64,000 nt of DNA from an uncultured cyanobacterium. Its GTDB lineage: Bacteria > Cyanobacteriota > Cyanobacteriia > PCC-9006 > JAAUQQ01. The notes below the pieces were generated by a model. That model worked only from the letters and a program-made list of their open reading frames with translations. It ran no database searches and was not told where the DNA came from. Location: contig OY970368.1 in NCBI GenBank assembly GCA_963718615.1, positions 5,184,001-5,248,000 of the forward strand. Reading direction: 5' to 3'. The translations under genes and the position numbers were made by a program. Positions 4,824-18,484 of this stretch are shown one piece after another. Position 1 is the stretch's first letter. Each line of letters begins with the position of its first letter.

Positions 4824-5375
4824 CTAGATCAAATCATGGAGATTTTTCCTCAACTTCGTAAATCCAAGGCGAAACCAGCTTTTAACGGTACCCAGAGGAA
4901 CCTGCAGCCGCTGAGCAATTTCGGCCTGGGTTAGACCCTCGTAATAGGCCAGTTTCAAGGCTTGACGCTGTTGCTCCGGTAACTCATTCAAGGCGGCTTG
5001 CACACGACGAGTCGTTTCGTCCTGGACAACGTTTTCCAGCGGTTGATTGGGAAACTCCTGTCCGATGTCCCCTCGAATCCAGCGCTGGGCGGTGCGTAGG
5101 GCTCCTTGACGCGATCGCACCCGGTCCAAAGCTCGCGAACGAATCGTCAGCAACAAAAAGCTTCTGAACGAGCCGCGTGCTGGATTATAGGTGCAGTGAT
5201 TCCAGAGGTTGAGAAAGACTTCTTGGACCAAATCTTCCGCTTCCTGGCGCTGCCCTAAAATTCGCAAGGCCAAACCATACATGACGTCCCCATAGCTATC
5301 GTAGAGCGACCCTAGGGCTGAGGCATCGCCTGCCTGAAGCGCTTGAACGATGGCTTGTTCAGAGGTACGGATCAC
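4824..5375 (-). CDS. ECF sigma-70 factor (SigK-like)
   Basis: Region 2 AEDLVQEVFL; region 4 LAYYEGLTQAEIAQRLQVPLGTVKS. Confidence 0.92.
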   Translation of the reverse strand: MIRTSEQAIVQALQAGDASALGSLYDSYGDVMYGLALRILGQRQEAEDLVQEVFLNLWNHCTYNPARGSFRSFLLLTIRSRALDRVRSRQGALRTAQRWIRGDIGQEFPNQPLENVVQDETTRRVQAALNELPEQQRQALKLAYYEGLTQAEIAQRLQVPLGTVKSWFRLGFTKLRKNLHDLI

Positions 5376-5595
5376 AGATCAGCGTCGTATGGATTTTCCA
5401 TAGTTTACCTTGCCTCAGTCAGCAAGACCGGACTTATGGGTTGCGACTTAACTTTTGTTAATTGGATAGCGTTTCTTCACCTCCTTACGGTACTAACGCT
5501 TTTAACTATAGATACGGAGCATCCCTTCATTTAGATCACCCCTGGTCAATCCCATCTCAAAATCCGAGATTTACGAGGTGATGAGGTCACAAGTT

Positions 5596-6945
5596 TTACT
5601 GAGCCAAACCCACATCCCAGCGATCGCGATGTCGTCCAATCGTGACTTGCTCCGCTAGACGCTGCTCGCACAACCGTAGAAGGTCCGCCGTGAAGAGTTG
5701 ACGGGAGGGGAGGCGATCGCCCAGGGCAAGGTGTCGAACCAAGGTCAGGCTGGTGTAGATCGCGATCCGTTGCCGCAAGGCCGTGAGTTGGGCAGGGGTC
5801 ATCTGGGGGGTTTGCAAATCGAGGAAGCTTTTGAGAAAGCGATCGCCCACCGGCTTAAGTGCCAGGGCATAGCCAAGGGTCCGCACACCCTGTTCGATTA
5901 AGTAGCCCAGAAAATTTCCCACATCTACGGCTGGATCACCTAAACAAGCCAGGTCCAGATCAAGAAAATAGAGCCGTTGGCCCATTCGTAGCACCTGATC
6001 CGCAGAAAAGTCGCGATGGATCAACCCTGAAGGGCCAGGGGATAAATCCCAGTCCAATCGATACCCCAACCGGTGACACTGCTCCCACAGGGCCAAAATA
6101 CGAGGCTCCCACTCGGGATGGCGTTGCGCAAGGCGACGCAATTGTTGGTGCAAAACCCTAAATTCCACCCCCAAATCATGCTGCTGAAGCTGCGGCCACA
6201 AGGAGGGCAGCGAGGTCCTATGTCCCCGTTGGGGACTCAAATGTTGTCCATCTAAGGGCGTCTGGTGGAGCTTGTGCAAGGCTTTTGCCATCTGCCGAGC
6301 AAGCAGCATACCGCTGGGTCCCGGCAAAATTTCAGTGACTTCTGTACCGGGAATCCGACGCTGCACCCACTGATTAAAGTCCGCAAACAATCCTAGCGGT
6401 TCGGGAACACTGATCTCATCCAGGCTCTGGTCATCAAAACCCGAGAACCAAAGCGCTCGCTGGATTTCATAACTGCGACGATCCAAACCTTTCGCACGGA
6501 TCTTGCCTAGAACATCGTAGGACCAGCCTGGAGCATCCGGATCAATCCAACGATATTCCACTAAACAGCGCCGACCCGGTTTATGCCGACAGATCCAAAT
6601 TCGCTTTAGAATCTGGGGCTGAGCTTCGCAGTCCGATGCTAATTCATGGGGAAGACTGCGAAACGGCAACGAGCCTTCAGCCTCGGCATTGTGGTAGAGC
6701 TGCTGAAATTGCTGGAGCACCTCCTCTGGATTCACTGCCGCTTTAAGGGTGAATAATGCCGGGTCAGATTGAGCATTGAGGGGATCCAGAATTGCAAGAT
6801 TGGGGGCGATCGCCCCAAAACAAGGGGAGGAGATCGGGGGCATCTCCTGAGAACCAGCGGTGGTGTCAAAGGAGCTTTTAGAAGTCGATAAATGGTGCAT
6901 ATAAACAATACGAAGTCTGTTAAAACTTGGATCACAACAGGGCAA
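5596..6945 (-). CDS. Aminoglycoside-phosphotransferase (APH/choline kinase)-family kinase
   Basis: Brenner motif IHRDFSADQV, LDLD, GDPAVDVGNF; the exact start is uncertain. Confidence 0.8.
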   Translation of the reverse strand: MPCCDPSFNRLRIVYMHHLSTSKSSFDTTAGSQEMPPISSPCFGAIAPNLAILDPLNAQSDPALFTLKAAVNPEEVLQQFQQLYHNAEAEGSLPFRSLPHELASDCEAQPQILKRIWICRHKPGRRCLVEYRWIDPDAPGWSYDVLGKIRAKGLDRRSYEIQRALWFSGFDDQSLDEISVPEPLGLFADFNQWVQRRIPGTEVTEILPGPSGMLLARQMAKALHKLHQTPLDGQHLSPQRGHRTSLPSLWPQLQQHDLGVEFRVLHQQLRRLAQRHPEWEPRILALWEQCHRLGYRLDWDLSPGPSGLIHRDFSADQVLRMGQRLYFLDLDLACLGDPAVDVGNFLGYLIEQGVRTLGYALALKPVGDRFLKSFLDLQTPQMTPAQLTALRQRIAIYTSLTLVRHLALGDRLPSRQLFTADLLRLCEQRLAEQVTIGRHRDRWDVGLAQ

Positions 6946-7289
6946 TTGATCGCCAGTTTCAGCCTAAGAACAATCTATGGATCCAATTTTCTCAAGGCCC
7001 AGTCGTCTTTACAAGGAAATTCAGGAGGCCATTTCAAAGAAAAATTATTTCCCAGTGATCCAACTAGAGCTTGACTCCGTATTAACAGCAGAACATCGCC
7101 CAACCCGTGAGTGAAATCTTCCCTTTATAGCTCTAACTCGGTGGCCCAAAAACTCTAGAGCGAGTAGAGCTCAATTGGATAATGACACTAGAGATTGCCT
7201 AGAACATTGCTTATCACAAGCATTTTCTTATCTCGGCAATCCCGTTTGGCAATTCTGTCAAGTAGCCTTTTATTTCTGTAGAGAACATC

Positions 7290-7472
7290 ATGAAAACGAC
7301 TCAAAAGCCCTCACTATTCACTAAAATCACTCCTGAAGAAGCAACGTTAATTAACGGTGGTCGTCGCGGTCGTGGTGCAGATGATGGCCCAGGCCACGAT
7401 GCAGGGGACGACAAAGGCGGTCGCAGAGGCGGTCGCGGTCGCGGCACAGATGACGGTCCCAATCATCGCTAA
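7290..7472 (+). CDS. Double-glycine leader precursor peptide (60 aa)
   Basis: Leader ...LFTKITPEEATLINGG followed by a 36-aa G/R/D-rich core; immediately upstream of a C39 transporter. Confidence 0.75.
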   Translation: MKTTQKPSLFTKITPEEATLINGGRRGRGADDGPGHDAGDDKGGRRGGRGRGTDDGPNHR

Positions 7473-7682
7473 GTAACTGCGGTGAACAGACTTAATTCCT
7501 AACTATTCTAAGGCAATGTGTAATTCGCGATCTGTGAGAGATTACAACCGGTCTAGGCAGTTGAAATAGACCTCGTTCTCTTGCATGGACCAGTAACTCT
7601 GATTGGGAAAGATTACACATTGCTGTTACATACCGCTATGACACACCATCGTTAAAAAGCAATTCAGACCCTCACTTTAGCG

Positions 7683-9833
7683 TTGACTATGGGTTATGCC
7701 AACATCTTGCAGTATAGCGAAGAAGACTGTGGTGCAGCTTGCTTAGCAAGCATCGCTCAACACTATGGCCAGTTCTTCAGCCTCAACCGTGTTCGTGCCG
7801 CCATTGGCACGGGTCAATTGGGTACAACACTGCTAGGATTGATGCAAGGAGCCGATAGTCTAGGCTTTCAGGCAAGAACCGTACGAGTTTCTCCAGATAT
7901 TCTCGATTGGCTTGATGAGATTCCCTTACCCGCCATTCTCCATTGGCAAGGCAACCATTACGTTGTGTTTTATGGGAAACGGGGCAATCAATACGTCATT
8001 GCTGACCCCGCGATTGGCATCCGCTTTGTCTCTAGACAAATCTTGCTCAAAGACTGGAGCCAAGGCGTTACACTCCTCCTAGAGCCGGATCCGCTGCGGT
8101 TCGCGGAGCAACTCGGCGATCGCCCCCAAAGCCTCATCCGGTTTCTACAACCCGCATGGCAGTATCGCGGTTTACTGATTGAAGCGCTGGTTTTAAATCT
8201 CTTCATCGGTGGATTTGCCTTAGCATTGCCCTTGGTCATTCAGGTTTTAACCGACGATATTTTGGTGCGGGGCGATCGCCTACTTTTGGCACGCATCGGC
8301 ATTGCTTTTGTTGTTTTACAGGGGCTCAGCAGTAGCTTAGAGTGGATTCAATCCCAACTCATTGCCCATTTCGCCCAGCGCCTCGAACTTAAACTAGTTC
8401 TTGAATTTTCCCGTACTCTGCTGCGGCTGCCCTTAACCTATTATGAGTCCCACCGCAGCGGTGAAATTGTTAGCCGTTTGCAGGATATTCAAGATATTAA
8501 TCGCTTGATTTCTAAAGTCTTGATTCGATTGCCCAGTCGATTTCTTGTGGCGTTAGTTTCTTTGGGCGTCATGGTCCTGTACAATTCAGCGCTCACGGGA
8601 GTTGCAGTGGCGATCGCGCTCTTCATGTCCTGCTCAACCCTAGTTTGCCTGCCAACTCTGCGGCGCAAAATGCGTCACTTGCTCACCCTTGAAGCGGAAA
8701 ATCAAGGCATTTTGGTTGAAAGCTTTAAAGGGGCCATGACCCTAAAGACCACTGGCGCTTCACCGCAGCTTTGGGACGAGCTCAACATCCGATTTGGGCA
8801 GTTAGCCAATCTAACCTTCCGCACGCTACAGATTAACATTCTCAATCGTAGTTTTTCTGGATTCGCCTTTGGCATCGGCGATATTGCGCTCCTCTGGTTT
8901 GGAAGCCAGTGGGTTTTGAGTGGAGACCTAAGCATTGGGCAGTTGCTAGCCTTTATGGCACTCACCGATAATTTTCTAGCATTTATTGATTTTGGTATCC
9001 AGTTTCTAGATGAGTATGTGCGAGTTAAAGCATCGGTTCAGCGGCTCTCAGAAGTTATTGATACTCCCCATGAGGCTTCATCCCAAGGCGGTCAAGCTCG
9101 GGCTCAGATCTCTTCAAGTGCAGACATTATTTGTGCAGATCTGAATTTCCATCATCCAGGTCGTCCCGAGCTTTTGAAAAATCTTTCGGTTAAGATTCCT
9201 GGCGGTAAAGTCACAGCTCTAATTGGTCCATCCGGCTGTGGCAAAAGTACTTTAACAAAATTAATCACTCAACTGTATAGTCTCCAATCCGGCAGCATTC
9301 GGGTAGGTGCCTATCGCCTTGGGGATCTACAACTAGACAATCTCAGACAACAGATTATTCTAGTTCCTCAAGATGCTCATTTTTGGAGTCGAAGTATTCT
9401 AGAAAACTTCCAGTTTTCGCTCCCTCATGCGAGCTTTGATCAGATTACAAAAGTCTGTCGAATTGCCGAAGCGGACGAATTTATCCAACAACTTCCCCAT
9501 GGCTATCAAACCATCCTAGGAGAATTTGGAGCTAATTTATCCGGTGGACAACGACAGCGGTTAGCGATCGCCCGCGCCCTCCTCTTCGATCCACCCATTC
9601 TCATCTTAGATGAATCGACAGCGGGCCTCGATCCGGTCAGCGAAGCCCATCTCCTCAATCAATTGCTCGCCCATCGACAGGGCAAAACCACATTATTAAT
9701 TAGCCATCGTCCCTCCGTCATTCAACGGGCAGATTGGGTCATTTTTCTAGAGCAAGGTCAACTTAAATTTCAAGGACCCTTGCTGGATTTACAGCGCAAT
9801 CCCGGCGCAGCAGCGAAGTTTGTTGCGCGATAG
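7683..9833 (+). CDS. Peptidase C39 domain-containing ABC transporter (PCAT)
   Basis: QYSEEDCGAAC (catalytic Cys), HYVV, IADP; TM domain; GPSGCGKS, LSGGQRQR, ILDE. Confidence 0.95.
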   Translation: MTMGYANILQYSEEDCGAACLASIAQHYGQFFSLNRVRAAIGTGQLGTTLLGLMQGADSLGFQARTVRVSPDILDWLDEIPLPAILHWQGNHYVVFYGKRGNQYVIADPAIGIRFVSRQILLKDWSQGVTLLLEPDPLRFAEQLGDRPQSLIRFLQPAWQYRGLLIEALVLNLFIGGFALALPLVIQVLTDDILVRGDRLLLARIGIAFVVLQGLSSSLEWIQSQLIAHFAQRLELKLVLEFSRTLLRLPLTYYESHRSGEIVSRLQDIQDINRLISKVLIRLPSRFLVALVSLGVMVLYNSALTGVAVAIALFMSCSTLVCLPTLRRKMRHLLTLEAENQGILVESFKGAMTLKTTGASPQLWDELNIRFGQLANLTFRTLQINILNRSFSGFAFGIGDIALLWFGSQWVLSGDLSIGQLLAFMALTDNFLAFIDFGIQFLDEYVRVKASVQRLSEVIDTPHEASSQGGQARAQISSSADIICADLNFHHPGRPELLKNLSVKIPGGKVTALIGPSGCGKSTLTKLITQLYSLQSGSIRVGAYRLGDLQLDNLRQQIILVPQDAHFWSRSILENFQFSLPHASFDQITKVCRIAEADEFIQQLPHGYQTILGEFGANLSGGQRQRLAIARALLFDPPILILDESTAGLDPVSEAHLLNQLLAHRQGKTTLLISHRPSVIQRADWVIFLEQGQLKFQGPLLDLQRNPGAAAKFVAR

Positions 9834-11225: not shown

Positions 11226-12827
11226 TCACACCACCCCTGACGCAATCATCTGAATGGCCTTGGGCAGGGATGGATCAAAGCCCCCAAAATCCCAAGAATT
11301 GCGGTCCTGGGGATCGGTCAATGTCAGTTGGTTGGGCACCAAGGTGACGTAAACAGCTTTAGCGTTGGGATTGACCCGCTGGCGATAGTCGGCTAGGGCT
11401 TGGCTCGGATGGCGGCGTCCAGCCCAGGATTCACAGTCGGTCCAGAAACAAAAGACATCGGCATGGAAACGATGGGCGATCGCCCAGTCATAGGCCACTG
11501 AAGCATCGGTCCCGCCAAAGTTCTGATCCTGGGCTTTCTGCATCGCCGAGGCGAAGCTATCGCGGGCCGTAATGCCGAGGTCTTTAAACTGGGTGGAAAA
11601 ACCGCGAATGGCGTAGTGATGCTCGGCTTTTGCCGTGGCTAAGGCCAAGGTTGTGGCAATTTCGCAACAGGTGAGGCCCAGGGACGTCACCTGATAAAAC
11701 CCCATGGAACCGGAGATATCGATCGCGTGCAGGAACACCTTGCCCGTTGGCTCCACAACTTCAAAGGAGAGCTCTAGGGCCTGGTCCAAAATATCGACAA
11801 TGCGGGCGATCGGCACCCAAGTTTTAGAACTGCGGCCCAGTTTGCCGCCGGACTGATAGGTCTTGAGCGCTTTGAGAATCTCGATGGGGTGAATCCGTGC
11901 CTTGCGCAGGGCATGGCGATCGCACAACCGTTTCGCCACTTGCTTGAGCTGTTTGCCCTTGTGGGACTGCAATACGCCAATTTGGGTGAGGGACCCGAGG
12001 TTGCGGAGTAAGGCTCCGAGGGGCATCTCTTGAAACAGCAACTGCCAGGCTTCAACATCCATCTGGCCGACGGGCGCGATCATTTCGTGGGTGAGTTTGC
12101 CCTGGGCGATCGCCTCCTTCGTCAGTTTGGGCTGGCGCTTGACCCGCTCATACCACCAAATCTGGGTCATCGCTTCAGACGGCGGTTGTGCAGGCACGAT
12201 ATCCCAACCTTGGGTCACCCACTGAAACAAGGCTTGGTGTTGATCGCTCACGGGTTTGGCATGCAGTAAGCGCAGGGCATCGCGATGGCAGAAGCCATGC
12301 CGTTGTTGATATTTGAGCAGTTGATAGGCCAATTGTTTGGCATTGGGCTGGGAAAGCCAAGCCTTACCGCATTCCCGCACGATTTTGCCAAAGCCCCGCG
12401 TCGATTTGGTGTAGCTCAACCACTCGTAGAAATGGCTGCCGGTGCGAACCACTTGCAAAAACACCTCGGCAAAGGCTTGCTTAGCGGCGTGGGATTCGCC
12501 CATGGAGAGGAGCACAAGGGCAAAAATGGGCGCACTGTTGTTGATCGCACGACCATCGCTAGCGTAGACAATTTCCTGGGCGACGCGCTGGGGATCTTCG
12601 TCCACGCAACGCCAAACGGCATCGACAAAATCGTGGGTGAGTTCGCGCTTGTCGGCATAGAACGAGCCTTGGGCGGTCCCCAGGAGCAAGCAGCGGCGCA
12701 GGTGTTGCCAGCGATCGCTCTTGAACCCATATCCCCCTGATCCAGCCTTGATCATCTCGGCTTGGCGACCGGGAATTGGCTGGGTTTGGGGCGTAGTTTG
12801 GGGGTTGAGATAAAACTGATAGGTCAT
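11226..12827 (-). CDS. rsr: Ro60/Rsr TROVE-domain RNA-binding protein with vWA domain
   Basis: GGYGF...LRRCLLLGT..GSFY N-terminus, ALLRNLG, RIHP, vWA MIDAS AIDISGSM, GGTD, FWTD. Confidence 0.92.
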   Translation of the reverse strand: MTYQFYLNPQTTPQTQPIPGRQAEMIKAGSGGYGFKSDRWQHLRRCLLLGTAQGSFYADKRELTHDFVDAVWRCVDEDPQRVAQEIVYASDGRAINNSAPIFALVLLSMGESHAAKQAFAEVFLQVVRTGSHFYEWLSYTKSTRGFGKIVRECGKAWLSQPNAKQLAYQLLKYQQRHGFCHRDALRLLHAKPVSDQHQALFQWVTQGWDIVPAQPPSEAMTQIWWYERVKRQPKLTKEAIAQGKLTHEMIAPVGQMDVEAWQLLFQEMPLGALLRNLGSLTQIGVLQSHKGKQLKQVAKRLCDRHALRKARIHPIEILKALKTYQSGGKLGRSSKTWVPIARIVDILDQALELSFEVVEPTGKVFLHAIDISGSMGFYQVTSLGLTCCEIATTLALATAKAEHHYAIRGFSTQFKDLGITARDSFASAMQKAQDQNFGGTDASVAYDWAIAHRFHADVFCFWTDCESWAGRRHPSQALADYRQRVNPNAKAVYVTLVPNQLTLTDPQDRNSWDFGGFDPSLPKAIQMIASGVV

Positions 12828-12945
12828 ACATTCCTCCAGCCCTTTGGGGCAAGGCGGCGTTGTGGGTTTGCCGCTGTTGCCTCCAGAGTAGGCGCGGGAG
12901 CTTCCCCTAGGCGACTCCCCTCTCGCCCAGCCGGAACGCTTGCCA

Positions 12946-13409
12946 TTACGGGCATTTCAGGGGAGGGGAGGGCGATCGCAGTTGAGGGAGTACCCGAACT
13001 TTCTGGGTTAAGTGCGCTCCTGATTTTCTCATCCGGCGACTTTGCGCCAAAACAACGCAGACAACGCCGTTGGTTTTCAGGTGAAGGCCAATGAGGATAG
13101 CCATGTCTACCAAGCAGACGAGACCATCACCCTGTCGCAGAACATCAGGTACCACCCTCTTCAGCCGCCGCGTAATCATTTGAGCCTTGACCCACTTGCC
13201 CGCCATCAACCAATCCCAGAGGACATCGCTAAAAAACTTGACCCAGCCGGGATGCGACCCAAGCATCTGCTCGAAAGAACGCATCTGATCCACACAAGCA
13301 TCAGGGGAGCATCGGTCAACAACTGCTGCCACAAGATTCAACTTTTTTCTGAAGACGACCCAACTCCCAAACCAGACGACTCATCCCTCTTCATAGAGTC
13401 TGCACTCAT
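12946..13409 (-). pseudogene. Hypothetical gene, apparently frameshifted at an A6 run
   Basis: Strong RBS AAGGAGGTGA before ATG 13409; the 23-aa ORF would join ORF 12946..13341 if one A were added at about 13345. Confidence 0.4.
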
Positions 13410-13459: not shown

Positions 13460-14398
13460 TTATTTCAGCAACGTTATTTCAGCAACTTCAAAAGTTGCGT
13501 CTGACTTTGCCAAAGCTTCACTCGCCCCGTCTTGTAAACCTTCGCAATAAACGGAGCCCGATTCCCCAGCGCAAACCGCTCCATCCGCGCCAAACTCTCC
13601 ACAAAAATCGCCGCCATCTTTTCCCGAGTCAAATTTCCAGATGCCAAAATAAACACCTTGGCACCCGAATGAGCAACGGCCAAAACACGCTGCCCGATTC
13701 CGCGACTCAAACCAAATCGCCGCATGAATTAGCTTCGATTGACAGTCATACTCCTCAGCAAGGTCATCAATCGAATCCCCGGCGTCATACAGCTCTGCAA
13801 TCACATCCGTTGGAATGCCCGTTCCAGAAATCACTGGGCGTCCAAACGAAACCCTCGGGTCAATCGTTAGTGGCTTCTCCAATGGCTCAATATCAGGTAA
13901 CGTCTGCACCATGGGGAAAAGACGCTCCGCAATCCCCTCCTCATTCCAATCAATCCGCGTCAGCAAATGCCGAAGGACATCACGCATGGCCAACTGTCCC
14001 GATCGTGACGCATTAATCAAATTGCCAAACGACTCTACAAACAAATCAACCCCATCTGTCTGGAACTCAACCCGAGCCAGGGGGTGTTCCATCACCAACT
14101 GCTGACTCACATAGTCCATCGCCTCCCGCACCTTATCCAAGCGAATGCGATGAGATTGGCGAATCACGCGAAGCACATGGGCCTCAATCAGGTTGATAAA
14201 GGAAAGCTGTGAATGCTGATCACTAGGCCGCTGAATGATAGCCGGGAGTGCCTTGGAGCCGTTCTTCGTGGGATATGTACGACCCTTCAGCCAAGTACGA
14301 AGTGTTGGCACCGGAATCTGAAGGTAGCGAGCTACGTCAGCCACCGCATAAACAGGGGCGTGATGAACCTGATTGCTCCAATCTAAATTAGGCGACAC
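13460..14398 (-). CDS. DUF433/VapB45-like antitoxin (native stop lost, reads through into the toxin remnant)
   Basis: HTH YAVADVARYL, LSFINLIEAHV, IDPRVSFGRPVISGTGIP (DUF433). Confidence 0.8.
   Translation of the reverse strand: MSPNLDWSNQVHHAPVYAVADVARYLQIPVPTLRTWLKGRTYPTKNGSKALPAIIQRPSDQHSQLSFINLIEAHVLRVIRQSHRIRLDKVREAMDYVSQQLVMEHPLARVEFQTDGVDLFVESFGNLINASRSGQLAMRDVLRHLLTRIDWNEEGIAERLFPMVQTLPDIEPLEKPLTIDPRVSFGRPVISGTGIPTDVIAELYDAGDSIDDLAEEYDCQSKLIHAAIWFESRNRAACFGRCSFGCQGVYFGIWKFDSGKDGGDFCGEFGADGAVCAGESGSVYCEGLQDGASEALAKSDATFEVAEITLLK
13474..13690 (-). pseudogene. C-terminal remnant of a VapC45-like PIN toxin
   Basis: AKVFILASGNLTREKMAAIF...RAPFIAKVYKTG resembles a VapC45 C-terminus; the N-terminal half is missing. 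Confidence 0.6.
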
Positions 14399-14481: not shown

Positions 14482-14685
14482 TTAAGAAATGACCAAACCC
14501 AGCTTCGCCAAAAGCTCCTCAGGGGAAACATTCTGCGACTGCCCCCGGTGACGCCCCTTCTTGCGCGCCTCAACCGGAATATCCGACAACTTGAGTACCG
14601 GCAAAAGCGTTGCAGCATTGAAAGCCTCGATATCGCGAATCAGCTCCTCCAACAATTCTAGGCGAGTAAAATGGTGATGTCTCAA
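14482..14685 (-). CDS. Small hypothetical protein or gene fragment
   Basis: ATG overlaps the Uma2 stop (ATGA coupling); no family recognised. Confidence 0.3.
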   Translation of the reverse strand: MRHHHFTRLELLEELIRDIEAFNAATLLPVLKLSDIPVEARKKGRHRGQSQNVSPEELLAKLGLVIS

Positions 14686-15278
14686 AGTCGATTCTCGGCA
14701 TACCTGTAAACCCGGCCCAGATTCAGCACCAGTGGCGGATGTAGATGGCCTAGCTGAATTTCTAGATCAGTTTCCTTGCCTAAATAGAAGTTCTTAATCC
14801 AGTCATTCTCTTGACGCTGATAGACCGTCACCATCACTTCAGTCTGCGACAAAATCAGATAGGTCTGTAGCGAATCGATCGCCAGATACTTTTCCCGCTT
14901 TTCTCCCTTATCCTTCCGCGCCGTGCTATCCGAAAGCACCTCCGCCAACAGCACAGGTGACTCCTCATACAACTCCGAATATTCTTCCCCACAAGCCAAC
15001 ATCACATCGGGATAAGCAGAATTATCCTTCTCATTAAGCCGCCGCTCCCGATCAATCCGCACCTTAACGTCTGCCACGTACAGGCGACAGCCCGCTTCCT
15101 TCTGGCGGTCAATCTCCGTAAACAGCCCCAGCGCAATCAAATTATGCGCCTTCGTCCCACCTGTCATTGCCACAATCTGGCCATCCAGCAGCTCATACTT
15201 GAGCCCCGTTAGCTCTTCCAGCTCCAGCAATTCCTCAAAGCTGTAAAGTCTTTTAGCATCTGGTAATGCACTGTTCAT
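14682..15278 (-). CDS. Uma2-family (DUF820) endonuclease
   Basis: KYELLDGQIVAMTGG, YPDV, EVLSDST..KD...K...Y. Confidence 0.9.
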   Translation of the reverse strand: MNSALPDAKRLYSFEELLELEELTGLKYELLDGQIVAMTGGTKAHNLIALGLFTEIDRQKEAGCRLYVADVKVRIDRERRLNEKDNSAYPDVMLACGEEYSELYEESPVLLAEVLSDSTARKDKGEKREKYLAIDSLQTYLILSQTEVMVTVYQRQENDWIKNFYLGKETDLEIQLGHLHPPLVLNLGRVYRYAENRL

Positions 15279-15427
15279 GGATCGTTCCCAACCAACAGCT
15301 CTAAACAACCTAGCGATTTCCAAGTCTTATTATCGCTCTTTCTCTTGATGATCCGGTTAATCAGATCATCGGTAGTCCAAATGATCAGGGTAATGGGATC
15401 ATCATGAACTCTTTCCGCCCTGATTTC

Positions 15428-15961
15428 CTAGATCGCTTGCCACTCGCGTAAAACTAACCGGCATTGCAGGCATTGGATTCGCGCTAGGAGCGATCGCACA
15501 CCGCTCTCATTGGCGGGATAAGCGGCTTCGAGGTATTCCGGTAAGACTATTGCATCGGGGCGAATCTGGGCGATGTAGCCGTAGAGCTTTTGGTTGGAGA
15601 AGGAACTGTTGATGGGCCAACCTTCGGTGTTGAGGGGGGTGAGGTGATCGATGGCGGGGGCGGGGAGGCCGAGTTCTCGCTGGAGGATGGCGATCGCCAC
15701 GGACTCGCGATCCTGTTCCGCCGGACAGCGCCCACCGGGGAGATCGAGGGTTGCGGTGCCAAGGCCAGGGCGATAGACGGGCGGGGGTAGGAGGATTTGT
15801 TGGTTTTGCAGGGGTAGAACGATGAGGGAGTCGGCTTTTTCAATTCGCCAGTATTCGTGGAGGGTACCGTTGGGGTCTTGGAGGTGTTCGCCGATGAGGG
15901 TGAGCCATTTTGTTTGGAGGTGGAGGAGGCGGTTTTGGAGGGTCCAGGGTTGGGGAGGCAT
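15428..15961 (-). CDS. NUDIX-fold hydrolase (degenerate Nudix box)
   Basis: YRPG....LDLPGG...AILQRELG. Confidence 0.7.
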   Translation of the reverse strand: MPPQPWTLQNRLLHLQTKWLTLIGEHLQDPNGTLHEYWRIEKADSLIVLPLQNQQILLPPPVYRPGLGTATLDLPGGRCPAEQDRESVAIAILQRELGLPAPAIDHLTPLNTEGWPINSSFSNQKLYGYIAQIRPDAIVLPEYLEAAYPANESGVRSLLARIQCLQCRLVLREWQAI

Positions 15962-16123: not shown

Positions 16124-17491
16124 TTGAAGCATAGGTCATACACCATGGTAAATGTCATCAGCGGTAGTTTATCTGAGGTGCTGCTAGAACTTCCTAGTGA
16201 CGCTAAAGAGCCGGTTGTTTGTCAATTATTTTCGGGTAAGCTTCTGAAAGCTTTAGGATTTGGAGATCATGAGGTTTATCCTGAGTATAAAACAGGGAGC
16301 GGGCAAAAATCTGTTGATAGGGCGGCAAGAAAAAATCTAGATAACAATGACCTATTCATTGCTACAAAAAAAGATCCATATTTGCTAGTAGAGCTAAAAG
16401 GAAGAGATATCAATTTGAGCGACGGCTCGGCACATTATCATTCAACTGTTAGACAGCTCAAAGGCTACATGCTTGATGTTAATTGCAAATCTGTAAAATG
16501 GGGAATTATTACAAATTCTTGCCATGTTCAACTATTTAGAAAGCATGGAAAAACTATTTACCCGGCAACCAAGTGCATCGCATTAAGCGTTGACAATATC
16601 GAAGAAGAAGTTAGAAAAATACGAGATAAGATTGACAACCCGAAAAAAGCTTTAACAGTCGCCATTTACAATAATAAAGGAGGCGTTGGCAAGACCACGA
16701 CGACAGTGAATCTTGCTGCGACTTTAGCTCTATTTGGCAAAAAAGTTTTGGCAGTTGATTTTGATCCAAATCAACACGATTTAAGCAATTCCTTGGGGTT
16801 TAAGTTAAGCGAAAATTCTGTTTCAAGTGCTTTAGAATCAAAAGATATAGATATTCTCTCAACCATAGAAACCTATTCTTTTAAAACTAGAACACCTGGA
16901 CTTTCTCTTACCTTTGATATTATTCCAGCAGACCAAAGGCTTAAAAAAGAGGGTGAAAAGTTTCTAAGTAACTACCCTAGAAACCTACTATATCGTAATC
17001 TTGAAGCCGCAAGAGAAAAATACGACTATATCATTGTAGACTCGCCACCTAATTGGACAATTTTTAGTCAACTGGCAGTCTATGCTGCCGATGTAGTTCT
17101 TATTCCAGCTAAGCATAATAACGTTTTCTCTCTGGAAAATGCGGCGATCGCCATGAAGAATTTTATTCCAGAAACACAAGAGCGAAAATCAGATGGAACA
17201 CCAGTCGCACTACCTATCTTTTTTAATGGTGAAAGAACTACTCCTCCACAATTGAGCGCAGCACAGAAGGAAATCAACAATATTCTTAAGACAGCAAAGC
17301 AGGAAGGATTTGATCTGCTACCCTACTTTTACTCTAGATACACGAATTCACAGAGAAACCTATATATTCCTCAAATACCAAGTTATGCCAACATAGCCAG
17401 TGCTGCCTTTTCTCGGGTGCCAGCCGTTTATCGTGATCGTGCTGCCCACGAATACTACAAAAACTTAGCAAAGGAATATTTTTTACAATGA
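16124..17491 (+). CDS. HsdR_N-like (PD-(D/E)xK) domain fused to a ParA/Soj-family ATPase
   Basis: N-terminal PEY...VD...VELK...QL..Y...WGIITN; C-terminal NNKGGVGKTT, DFDPNQ, YDYIIVDSPP; AT-rich; start may be the ATG at 16145. Confidence 0.75.
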   Translation: MKHRSYTMVNVISGSLSEVLLELPSDAKEPVVCQLFSGKLLKALGFGDHEVYPEYKTGSGQKSVDRAARKNLDNNDLFIATKKDPYLLVELKGRDINLSDGSAHYHSTVRQLKGYMLDVNCKSVKWGIITNSCHVQLFRKHGKTIYPATKCIALSVDNIEEEVRKIRDKIDNPKKALTVAIYNNKGGVGKTTTTVNLAATLALFGKKVLAVDFDPNQHDLSNSLGFKLSENSVSSALESKDIDILSTIETYSFKTRTPGLSLTFDIIPADQRLKKEGEKFLSNYPRNLLYRNLEAAREKYDYIIVDSPPNWTIFSQLAVYAADVVLIPAKHNNVFSLENAAIAMKNFIPETQERKSDGTPVALPIFFNGERTTPPQLSAAQKEINNILKTAKQEGFDLLPYFYSRYTNSQRNLYIPQIPSYANIASAAFSRVPAVYRDRAAHEYYKNLAKEYFLQ

Positions 17492-18177
17492 AAAACATAA
17501 CTGATATCGGTAGCTTGATGCATCTATATTTAGATGAGATTGATCCTGGGGAAGGCACTGATTGCCCCGATTTTCTCATCAAAGCATCAGCTCAAATACT
17601 CAACCAAAAAGATGAAAGAAATTGGCTACCCGTCATTGTTAAAGAGATTGCTGAAGATCGCTATGAGGTGATTGCAAATTCATTTGTCTATGCGATCGCC
17701 GAAGCAGCGGGTCTAGAGAGAGTTTGGTGCATTATCGCAGATGACAGCGAGAATACAGCCTTAATCAGTCGAGTATTAACTGGTGAGGAAATTCCTAAGA
17801 TCAACCTTTCTAAAGCCTCAAGAGATGAAATTGTAGCAGCTTTAGAATATCTAGCTCAGCAGCCTGGAAGTCTTCTAAAATCTGTGAAAGTCTCAATTGC
17901 CGCTAATCGAATTGATGAAGCTCCTAGGCAATATTGGAAGAATTTTGATGCGATCGCAAACTTAAAATGCGGAATCACGAGAGGGAAAAAACTAGATGCT
18001 TTGAAAAAGGTTTTCTATTTAACCCCTCAGCCTATGCCTGACACAATTTCTGATCCCAAGATTTTAGAGACTATGACGATTACAGATCTAAAAGCCATGG
18101 CAAAGAAACGCAAGATTGTGGGTCTTAGCAAAATGAAAAAGGCCGATCTGGTTAATGTATTAAGTCAAGCTGAATAG
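17488..18177 (+). CDS. ParB-like N-terminal / Rho-termination-factor N-terminal domain protein
   Basis: NWLPVIVKE...YEVI (ParB/Srx-like); C-terminal MTITDLKAMAKKRKIVGLSKMKKADLV (Rho_N); ATGA coupled to the ParA gene. Confidence 0.65.
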   Translation: MKNITDIGSLMHLYLDEIDPGEGTDCPDFLIKASAQILNQKDERNWLPVIVKEIAEDRYEVIANSFVYAIAEAAGLERVWCIIADDSENTALISRVLTGEEIPKINLSKASRDEIVAALEYLAQQPGSLLKSVKVSIAANRIDEAPRQYWKNFDAIANLKCGITRGKKLDALKKVFYLTPQPMPDTISDPKILETMTITDLKAMAKKRKIVGLSKMKKADLVNVLSQAE

Positions 18178-18196
18178 TTCAGCCTGCCATCAATGA

Positions 18197-18323
18197 GGGA
18201 GTAGAACGGGAATCGAACCCGCACCTCGACGGACAAAGGGGGAAAGAGCTTTACAGAGCGATAACCCTCCATCCTACAGCCCTTACGGGCAAAATTGCGC
18301 TCTACCGTTGAGCTATCCACTCC
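18197..18323 (-). ncRNA. tRNA-like RNA 2 (putative Y RNA)
   Basis: Acceptor GGAGUGGA/UCUACUCC, D arm GCUC-AACGGUA-GAGC, T arm GCGGG-UUCGAUU-CCCGU; enlarged centre containing GGGCUGUAGGAUGGAGGGUUAUCGC. Confidence 0.75.
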
Positions 18324-18359
18324 ATAAGATATCGAACGAAAATCGAAAGAACACTGAGG

Positions 18360-18484
18360 CGTGGCAGGGAGGATTCGAACCTCCGACCTCCCGCTTAACA
18401 GGCGATAACCCTTCTTCAACGACCCTCGCGGATAAATAAGTGAATCAGGGGGTTTAGGCGCTCTAGCCTCTGAGCTACTGCCAC
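18360..18484 (-). ncRNA. tRNA-like RNA 1: tRNA-Asn(GUU) cloverleaf with a 52-nt insertion (putative Y RNA)
   Basis: GUGGCAG/CUGCCAC acceptor, D arm, CC[insert]CGC-CUGUUAA-GCGGG, T arm GGAGG-UUCGAAU-CCUCC, G73. Confidence 0.8.

Follow-up and report, generated by a model that had tools for sequence, protein, structure and literature searches.

A candidate non-permuted, tRNA-shaped Y RNA in a two-unit array linked to the Ro60 gene of an uncultured cyanobacterium

Bacterial Y RNAs are known from few species, and those of cyanobacteria as predictions only. The closest described system is YrlA, a Ro60-bound RNA whose tRNA-like domain is circularly permuted (Chen et al. 2014, RNA 20:1715, PMC4201824, in the parts of that article drawn on throughout this report). 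Here we analyse a stretch of 64,000 nucleotides (nt) of an uncultured cyanobacterium (contig OY970368.1 of assembly GCA_963718615.1, positions 5,184,001 to 5,248,000; hereafter the window), which carries the Ro60 gene rsr and, on the same strand, two tRNA-like RNA units, RNA 1 and RNA 2. We put at roughly three in four the probability that RNA 2, the subject of this report, belongs to an array of two Ro60-associated Y RNAs of the YrlA lineage and takes a form typical of cyanobacteria, with a complete, non-permuted tRNA shape. That RNA 2 is a Ro60-linked Y RNA of the YrlA lineage appears very probable. YrlA-type Y RNA is already known; what is new in the proposed reading is the non-permuted tRNA topology, together with the type-B wiring described below.

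Chen et al. 2014 noted few YrlAs in cyanobacteria, some of them with a 'longer acceptor stem'. Predicted loci are listed there for Calothrix, Stanieria, Gloeocapsa, Nostoc, Cyanothece and others (Table S1), and the YrlA-II seed (supplementary text 2) has rows for the first three. Such a row runs in the order GGNCGAA..GAGGGTTATCG, T arm, 3' acceptor strand (often CCA), spacer, next 5' strand, D arm, ..TCCTTGTTCA, which corresponds to the 3' half of one of our units joined to the 5' half of the next. Because the YrlA-II rows match unit halves in this way, the cyanobacterial loci and their motif were already in print as YrlA; in the same seed file the motif aligns with CGGUUAYC of actinobacterial YrlAs. 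Supplementary file 6 and Fig. S1 aside, the parts of the article drawn on here make no mention of type-B wiring, complete monomers or encoded CCA. A structure preprint (10.1101/312249, likewise in part) cites a model for the origin of YrlA from dimeric tRNA transcripts, and mentions b7a-tRNA (Burroughs and Aravind 2016), a predicted, closely tRNA-like RNA that is linked to RNA-repair genes and is said to stand beside rsr occasionally. Our literature search, with Burroughs and Aravind 2016 and Sim and Wolin 2018 outside its scope, returned no paper on non-permuted or type-B cyanobacterial Y RNAs.

The two units, and the parts of RNA 2, are placed in the window as follows (bp, base pairs).

18198..18323, minus strand: RNA 2, a type-B tRNA-shaped Y-RNA-like unit of 126 nt, from G-1 to position 73
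18316-18323 with 18198-18205, minus strand: acceptor stem of 8 bp including G-1:C73, formed by the own ends of RNA 2
18299-18313, minus strand: D arm (GCUC, AACGGUA, GAGC), from the Rfam tRNA alignment
18279-18290, minus strand: GNRA-capped hairpin (GCCC, GUAA, GGGC) between the D arm and the extended anticodon arm
18277-18278, minus strand: UG replacing the conserved CG (GNCG of the YrlA motif), pairing with CG at 18227-18228
18265-18274 with 18231-18240, minus strand: long helix of 10 bp, 5' strand GGAUGGAGGG and 3' strand CCCUUUGUCC, the 5' strand ending in the conserved AGGG
18248-18264, minus strand: anticodon-like tip, UUAUC followed by a stem-loop (GCU, CUGUAA, AGC), from the fold
18251-18256, minus strand: CUGUAA loop within the tip stem-loop
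18206-18222, minus strand: T arm (GCGGG, UUCGAUU, CCCGU), from the Rfam tRNA alignment
18360..18484, minus strand: RNA 1, a type-A unit, upstream of RNA 2 and separated from it by a 36-nt spacer (18324-18359)

An earlier reading of the window from its letters alone (the sequence-only reading) had proposed a second tRNA-like RNA whose D and T arms are intact, with an acceptor stem of 8 bp and a 36-nt spacer, and all of these are present in the minus-strand sequence. RNA 2 matches the Rfam tRNA model (RF00005) end to end (18198-18322, model positions 1-71) with 41.4 bits, above the gathering score of 29 (E value 2.3e-05 for the whole window), with 69 nt inserted and the anticodon arm replaced. 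It thus has the acceptor/D/T cloverleaf of a tRNA at the gathering score and lacks the canonical 5-bp anticodon stem with 7-nt loop and a kept anticodon, the loop letters varying in relatives. ARAGORN in default mode found no tRNA anywhere in the window; in intron mode it called both RNA 1 and RNA 2, with arbitrary anticodons. On inspection, the other long tRNAs called in intron mode (146, 107, 98 and 102 nt) appear to be false. The single-sequence fold energy of RNA 2 is mildly better than that of shuffles (z -2.18), and its 10-bp helix, the downstream pairing of the motif that had been proposed earlier, is present in the minimum-free-energy fold and covaries in 23 relatives.

Every unit, here and in other cyanobacteria, carries the same module: a short hairpin, usually GNRA-capped, followed by NCG, the 3' strand of a helix ending in AGGG, UU, and AUCG, the last serving in most units as 5' strand of a stem of 4-5 bp that is capped by a CUNNNAA loop of 7 nt. 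The partner of the AGGG strand defines two wirings. In type A, to which RNA 1 belongs, AGGG pairs with an upstream CCYU strand, so that the module forms a side arm after the D arm and ahead of an anticodon arm that keeps its normal place. Type-B units such as RNA 2 are without the upstream strand and pair AGGG with a downstream CCCU, which makes the module a straight continuation of the anticodon arm and places the hairpin where the D and anticodon arms meet.

Both types show covariation. Among 23 type-B units, in an alignment fitted to a covariance model, 91.4% of cells are paired as compared with 38-47% with slid partners, none of 500 shuffles reached the observed value, and two-sided changes occur in 22 of 35 pairs. 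They affect six of the eight acceptor pairs (97.3% of cells paired), three of the five T-stem pairs and six of the seven pairs of the long helix (90.6% of cells paired), one position of which reads UA 13, AU 5, CG 3 and UG 1, and another CG 7, UA 7, UG 4 and GU 1. The inserted hairpin is 98.6% paired in type B and shows two-sided changes in three of its four pairs in type A. The tip stem of RNA 2 fits the family poorly (61% of cells paired), many relatives having instead an AUCG/CGAU stem with the 7-nt loop CUNNNAA. For 35 type-A units in a plain MAFFT alignment, 95.5% of cells are paired versus 44-52% with slid partners, and the acceptor, D, hairpin and T stems covary. Tertiary pairs of the tRNA kind are also kept: the Levitt pair 15:48 is G:C in 34 and A:U in 26 of 60 units, with no exceptions, and D-loop GG goes with T-loop UU in 51 of the 60 and D-loop AG with T-loop UG in seven, with two exceptions. 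Because both types covary and the tRNA-like tertiary pairs are maintained, the occurrence of one motif in two different folds is genuine and under selection, and on this comparative evidence RNA 2 is a real, conserved and selected RNA. The sequence-only reading had gone on to suggest a selected protein-binding element; selection of one motif in different folds stands, whereas the motif turns out to be partly structural, with AGGG serving as a helix strand and AUCG as a stem strand.

The module also occurs in other tRNA bodies, that is, in class-II-like units, which have a long variable arm, and in units that carry an additional hairpin or have no D arm (L numbers are our handles for loci, G numbers for genomes).

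L014, 1316-1454: module-bearing unit with another body
L064, 7292-7428: module-bearing unit with another body
L144, 475-610: module-bearing unit with another body
L113, 8149-8289: module-bearing unit with another body
L152, 42-178: module-bearing unit with another body
L155, 403-541: module-bearing unit with another body
L167, 660-747: module-bearing unit with another body

The sequence common to RNA 1 and RNA 2, AGGGUUAUCGC, which had been noticed earlier as a shared motif and reads GGGCUGUAGGAUGGAGGGUUAUCGC as the motif of RNA 2, is found twice in the window and in none of 100 shuffles. The same holds for the 11-mer AGGGTTATCGC (two copies versus none in 100 shuffles), while the 10-mer alone is ordinary genome-wide, with 10 copies versus about 11 expected. 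The decisive evidence beyond chance is comparative, in that other cyanobacteria conserve the unit as a whole. All 35 type-A units have AGGGUUAUCG unchanged, and all 23 type-B units have GGUU. The CUGUAA loop, read earlier as anticodon-like, is present in RNA 2 but is not conserved among relatives. No further copies of the RNA units were found in the window's own genome.

The body of RNA 1 resembles a tRNA-Asn, interrupted by an insert of about 52 nt that follows the D arm and precedes an intact anticodon arm; over 41 nt, the anticodon and T arms of this unit share 83% identity with the tRNA-Asn gene of the genome. The two RNAs could accordingly be seen as decoding tRNA genes with a removable, intron-like insert, giving tRNA-Asn or tRNA-Tyr, since RNA 1 minus its insert resembles tRNA-Asn(GUU) and ARAGORN in intron mode calls both. 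We consider this extremely improbable: the insert lies outside the anticodon loop, between the D arm and the anticodon stem, type-B units lack an anticodon stem in the canonical position, the loop triplets differ in orthologues (GUU, GGA, UAA, UCU, UGG, GAA, GUA, UUC), the genome has ordinary tRNA-Asn and tRNA-Tyr genes, and what is conserved is the insert, not the tRNA identity.

The distribution of the units follows that of Ro60. We searched 151 genomes of the class Cyanobacteriia with the window's Ro60 protein and with R1, our own covariance model of type B, which includes RNA 2 among its seeds; RNA 2 therefore scores as a seed itself (110.5 bits, seed range 96.7-126.2), and RNA 1 scores 31.1 bits. 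Ro60 is present in 28 genomes and absent from 123. Long R1 matches (119-128 nt) were obtained from 24 genomes, each of which has Ro60, and an unfiltered search found units upstream of rsr in two further Ro60-positive genomes (G133 and G150). Units were thus found in 26 of the 28 Ro60-positive genomes, or 26 of 26 that can be assessed, because in G001 the contig ends inside rsr and in G105 rsr is a fragment with a stop codon. The sequence-only reading had pointed to a search near other Ro60 genes as its test, and the motif is indeed present in the adjoining RNAs of all 26. The 123 Ro60-negative genomes gave no R1 match of at least 119 nt; they gave many matches of 72-74 nt, which are ordinary tRNAs, and a single one of 94 nt (G099).

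The arrays consist of 2-5 tandem units directly upstream of rsr; in each of the 23 other genomes, a distance of 20-328 nt (taken by hand) separates the gene from the closest of these units, which is on the same strand. In a DNA search of 60 relatives, the two-unit region was found in eight other genomes, of different families. Of 26 cyanobacterial loci, 20 showed an orthologue adjoining the units in a tblastn search with the window's Ro60, and the other six are at most 958 nt long; Ro60 orthologues adjoining arrays elsewhere show 60-73% identity. Finally, a scan of a genome collection with a loose pattern gave, among the matches listed, nine loci with at least two matches, all cyanobacterial (Nostoc, Pseudanabaena, Iningainema, Dendronalium and a Leptolyngbyaceae genome). 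We attribute 100 of the non-cyanobacterial pattern loci to chance, as R1 recognised in them only four ordinary tRNAs of 72-74 nt (L156 and L157 were outside this test). The 'Synechococcus' locus L123 had no R1 match, and none of the nine pattern matches in viral contigs was recognised by R1.

Ordinary tRNA genes stand beside or near some arrays (L062, 8114-8281; L060, 10152-12766). In Nostocales loci rsr is flanked on both sides, an extra unit of about 110 nt following directly downstream of the gene.

L098, 9946-10054: unit downstream of rsr
L101, 9936-10044: unit downstream of rsr
L092, 9947-10056: unit downstream of rsr
L080, 6188-6297: unit downstream of rsr
L113, 6185-6294: unit downstream of rsr

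The linkage to Ro60 also bears on whether the units serve another partner, for example as tRNA decoys for an EAD4-NACHT protein or for an anticodon nuclease. The units do have anticodon-like loops, and an EAD4-NACHT-HEAT gene adjoins the array in the window and in L055, L009, L016 and L013. However, NACHT was found in 4 of the 26 tblastn loci, many of which are too short to show it, as compared with Ro60 in 20; Ro60 accompanies the units in every assessable genome, matches of at least 119 nt are absent from the Ro60-negative ones, and the loop sequences are not conserved. We thus regard another partner as very unlikely.

If RNA 2 is a Y RNA, it could still be read in the permuted manner of Chen et al. 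2014. A permuted YrlA would start in the RNA 1 insert and run through the RNA 1 T arm, a closed acceptor stem-loop and the RNA 2 D arm to the Ro60-binding stem, the closed 'acceptor' being composed of the RNA 1 3' strand, the spacer and the RNA 2 5' strand. The YrlA-II seed treats the Calothrix, Stanieria and Gloeocapsa loci in this way, the longer cyanobacterial 'acceptor stems' were noted in that article, and a weak match to the Rfam YrlA model in our window does span the RNA 1/RNA 2 junction (18299-18388). This match, however, reaches 17.3 bits against a gathering score of 69. No canonical YrlA was found near rsr in the window at E values up to 5, and in 20 cyanobacterial loci Rfam gave no YrlA match, recognising 16 long units as full-length tRNA.

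The acceptor stems provide a more direct comparison. The acceptor stem of each unit, formed by its own ends, covaries. Neighbouring units differ in their 5' strands at 78 positions; among these, the 3' strand of a unit could pair with the next unit at 29 (37%), the chance rate with G-U allowed, and with its own strand at all 78, and 59 of 60 units are paired at 7/7; these own-pairing counts are inflated and are not independent tests, because the unit finder required at least 6/7 own pairs. In the window, own pairing is 7/7 for RNA 1 and 8/8 for RNA 2, whereas the 3' acceptor strand of RNA 1 and the 5' strand of RNA 2 have four complementary bases (by reading of the sequence). RNA 2 also lacks the upstream CCYU strand with which a Ro-binding stem with RNA 1 would be made, and its own helix covaries. 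More generally, no permuted closing stem can form at A-to-B junctions (7 of 30), every type-B unit is self-contained, arrays begin and end with complete units, CCA is encoded after the stem in 24 of 60 units (40%), and the minimum-free-energy fold of the dicistron consists of two separate domains. A permuted RNA 2 is therefore unlikely, and monomers are probably the mature form, to judge from these pairings.

Several points nonetheless weigh against a non-permuted, Ro60-linked RNA 2. When the units of an array are alike, acceptor strands can often pair across units, with at least 6/7 pairs at 17 of 30 junctions, which favours the permuted form. The type-A helix pairs equally well with the own and the next unit in 11 of 16 comparisons, because its strands are near-identical between units, and it is conserved but hardly covaries (one of nine pairs). 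The fitting of the type-B alignment to the covariance model biases it towards structure, and to the bias of the unit finder given above must be added the 17 motif sites near arrays that it missed. RNA 2 reads GCUGUAG in place of the YrlA motif GNCGAAN0-1G; other type-B units have GNCG followed by CA, AA or AC, and the full motif is found in some type-A units only. RNA 2 is atypical in having U for the C of NCG and a tip of 3 bp and 6 nt versus 4 bp and 7 nt. Lastly, the window is the only case where the array, although on the same strand as rsr, is 5,371 nt away from it, a distance that exceeds the 4-kilobase (kb) reporting limit of Chen et al. 2014.

The separation is due to the following arrangement of the locus.

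11226..12827, minus strand: rsr (Ro60), 533 amino acids, with TROVE and Ro60 vWA domains (Pfam)
12833..12850, minus strand: rsr leader hairpin GCCC, CAAA, GGGC, then UG, GGAGG, directly before the start codon
12853..18195: lineage-specific block of about 5.3 kb between rsr and the array; the similarity shared with L010, L009 and L055 ends near 12852 and begins again near 18196
12853-13012, minus strand: upstream element copy 2, about 150 nt, ahead of rsr and inside the block
13460-14398, minus strand: DUF433/HTH_66 gene, in the block (Pfam)
14682-15323, minus strand: Uma2 gene, in the block (Pfam)
15428-15961, minus strand: open reading frame of 177 amino acids, in the block
16124-17491, plus strand: ParA-like ATPase with HSDR_N_2 domain, in the block
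17488-18177, plus strand: ParB_N/Rho_N protein gene, in the block
18486..18660, minus strand: upstream element copy 1, ahead of RNA 1; aligns with copy 2 and with the array-upstream regions of L012, L013 and L016
19242-22181, plus strand: EAD4-NACHT-HEAT (STAND NTPase) gene, divergent beside the array

The block was not seen in the 23 other genomes, and one might suppose that its insertion cut the array off from rsr and left RNA 2 as a decaying, non-functional relic. The distance to rsr, as against 20-328 nt in all 23 others, would fit, as would the shortened tip stem and the U that RNA 2, alone among 23 type-B units, has at the conserved C of the NCG column (C in 22 of 23). We find decay distinctly unlikely, because all four arms and the long helix of RNA 2 are intact, its R1 score lies inside the range of the seeds to which it belongs, its acceptor-stem differences from the closest relative, L010, are compensatory, and the C-to-U change keeps a U-G pair, with UG at that place in five rsr leaders too. 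In addition, the upstream element is kept ahead of both the array and rsr.

Within this upstream element, of the form AAAGUUCGGGU ... GCCUAYUCUGG ... CAACAGC, there is an inverted repeat that covaries; the element may act as a promoter/operator region or represent another RNA. Scans for promoters and terminators showed no sigma-70-like site ahead of RNA 1 or of rsr on the correct strand. Since the element is kept ahead of both, the array and rsr may still share regulation.

In 20 of 20 rsr leaders there is a hairpin, UUGCCC, NNNN, GGGC, followed by C/U-G and GGAG, 10-25 nt before the start. It resembles the hairpin and CG of the RNA units and abuts the ribosome-binding site (L009-L016, L055-L128 and the window), a likeness that suggests autoregulation of rsr by Ro60.

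The remaining neighbourhood is variable. The EAD4-NACHT-HEAT gene that adjoins the array in L055 occupies 5157-8192, with like genes beside those of L009, L016 and L013, all of them divergent from the array as in the window. The genes after rsr differ, with RtcB second downstream in L055 (790-1971, minus strand), a Band_7-FHA protein in L058 (10052-11143, minus strand) and a NADAR-domain protein in L060 (5591-6031, minus strand). RtcB was not found near rsr or the array of the window.

With sequence, conservation, covariation and rsr linkage established for these units, we can propose how such RNAs might be processed, bind Ro60 and function. One array precursor would be transcribed from the conserved upstream element and cut to monomers of about 125 nt by RNase P and by RNase Z or exonucleases, like pre-tRNAs, CCA being given or left. 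The conserved module (GNRA-type hairpin, NCG, AGGG/CCYU helix, UU and AUCG stem) would bind the Ro60 ring, and the tRNA-like body could be a handle for a tRNA-binding partner, as proposed for YrlA. Going further, we tentatively suggest, at somewhat less than even odds, that cyanobacterial Y RNAs are tRNA-topology molecules, arrayed, matured like tRNAs and CCA-ended, with a portable Ro60-binding module that has evolved two or more wirings into tRNA bodies (A and B, with class-II-like and D-arm-less forms in addition); that permuted YrlA is a read-through derivative of them; and that Ro60 represses itself through the leader hairpin unless Y RNAs titrate it.

If the non-permuted reading is true, the RNA species sought in Ro60 pull-downs would change, and the arrays would be a living intermediate in the origin from dimeric tRNA transcripts that has been proposed for YrlA. 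The candidate Ro60-binding element is narrowed to a small module in two wirings. For annotation, the units are missed by ARAGORN in default mode and by the Rfam YrlA model, and Rfam calls them tRNA.

Among known systems, an ordinary tRNA (RF00005, or the genome's tRNA-Asn) shares with the units the acceptor, D and T arms, but the units differ from it in a conserved insert of 52-69 nt, the linkage to rsr and an anticodon that is not conserved. The YrlA of M. smegmatis, as described in the parts of the literature used here, has a 7-bp acceptor stem, is cleaved by RNase P and receives CCA, so that a Y RNA with tRNA-type processing exists; there the cleavage opens the closed stem-loop of a permuted RNA, whereas the cyanobacterial genes are already in tRNA order. 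Like YrlA in general (RF02553), the units are encoded with rsr on the same strand, often in several copies per locus, and have D and T arms with the conserved tertiary pairs G15:C48 or A15:U48, present in 60 of 60 units; also common to both, as far as the YrlA descriptions used here go, is the succession GNCG(AA), ..GGUUAYC.. and an anticodon-like stem. In those descriptions, YrlA has its T arm before its D arm and a closed acceptor stem-loop, and its two ends make up the Ro-binding stem, while RNA 2 has the D arm before the T arm, an acceptor stem made by its own ends and the module inside the anticodon-arm region. The cyanobacterial YrlA-II predictions, in the portion of them used for this comparison, come from the same kind of locus and have the same GAGGGTTATCG, T arm and D arm beside rsr, but they read a single RNA across two neighbouring units, whereas here each unit appears as a self-closed molecule.

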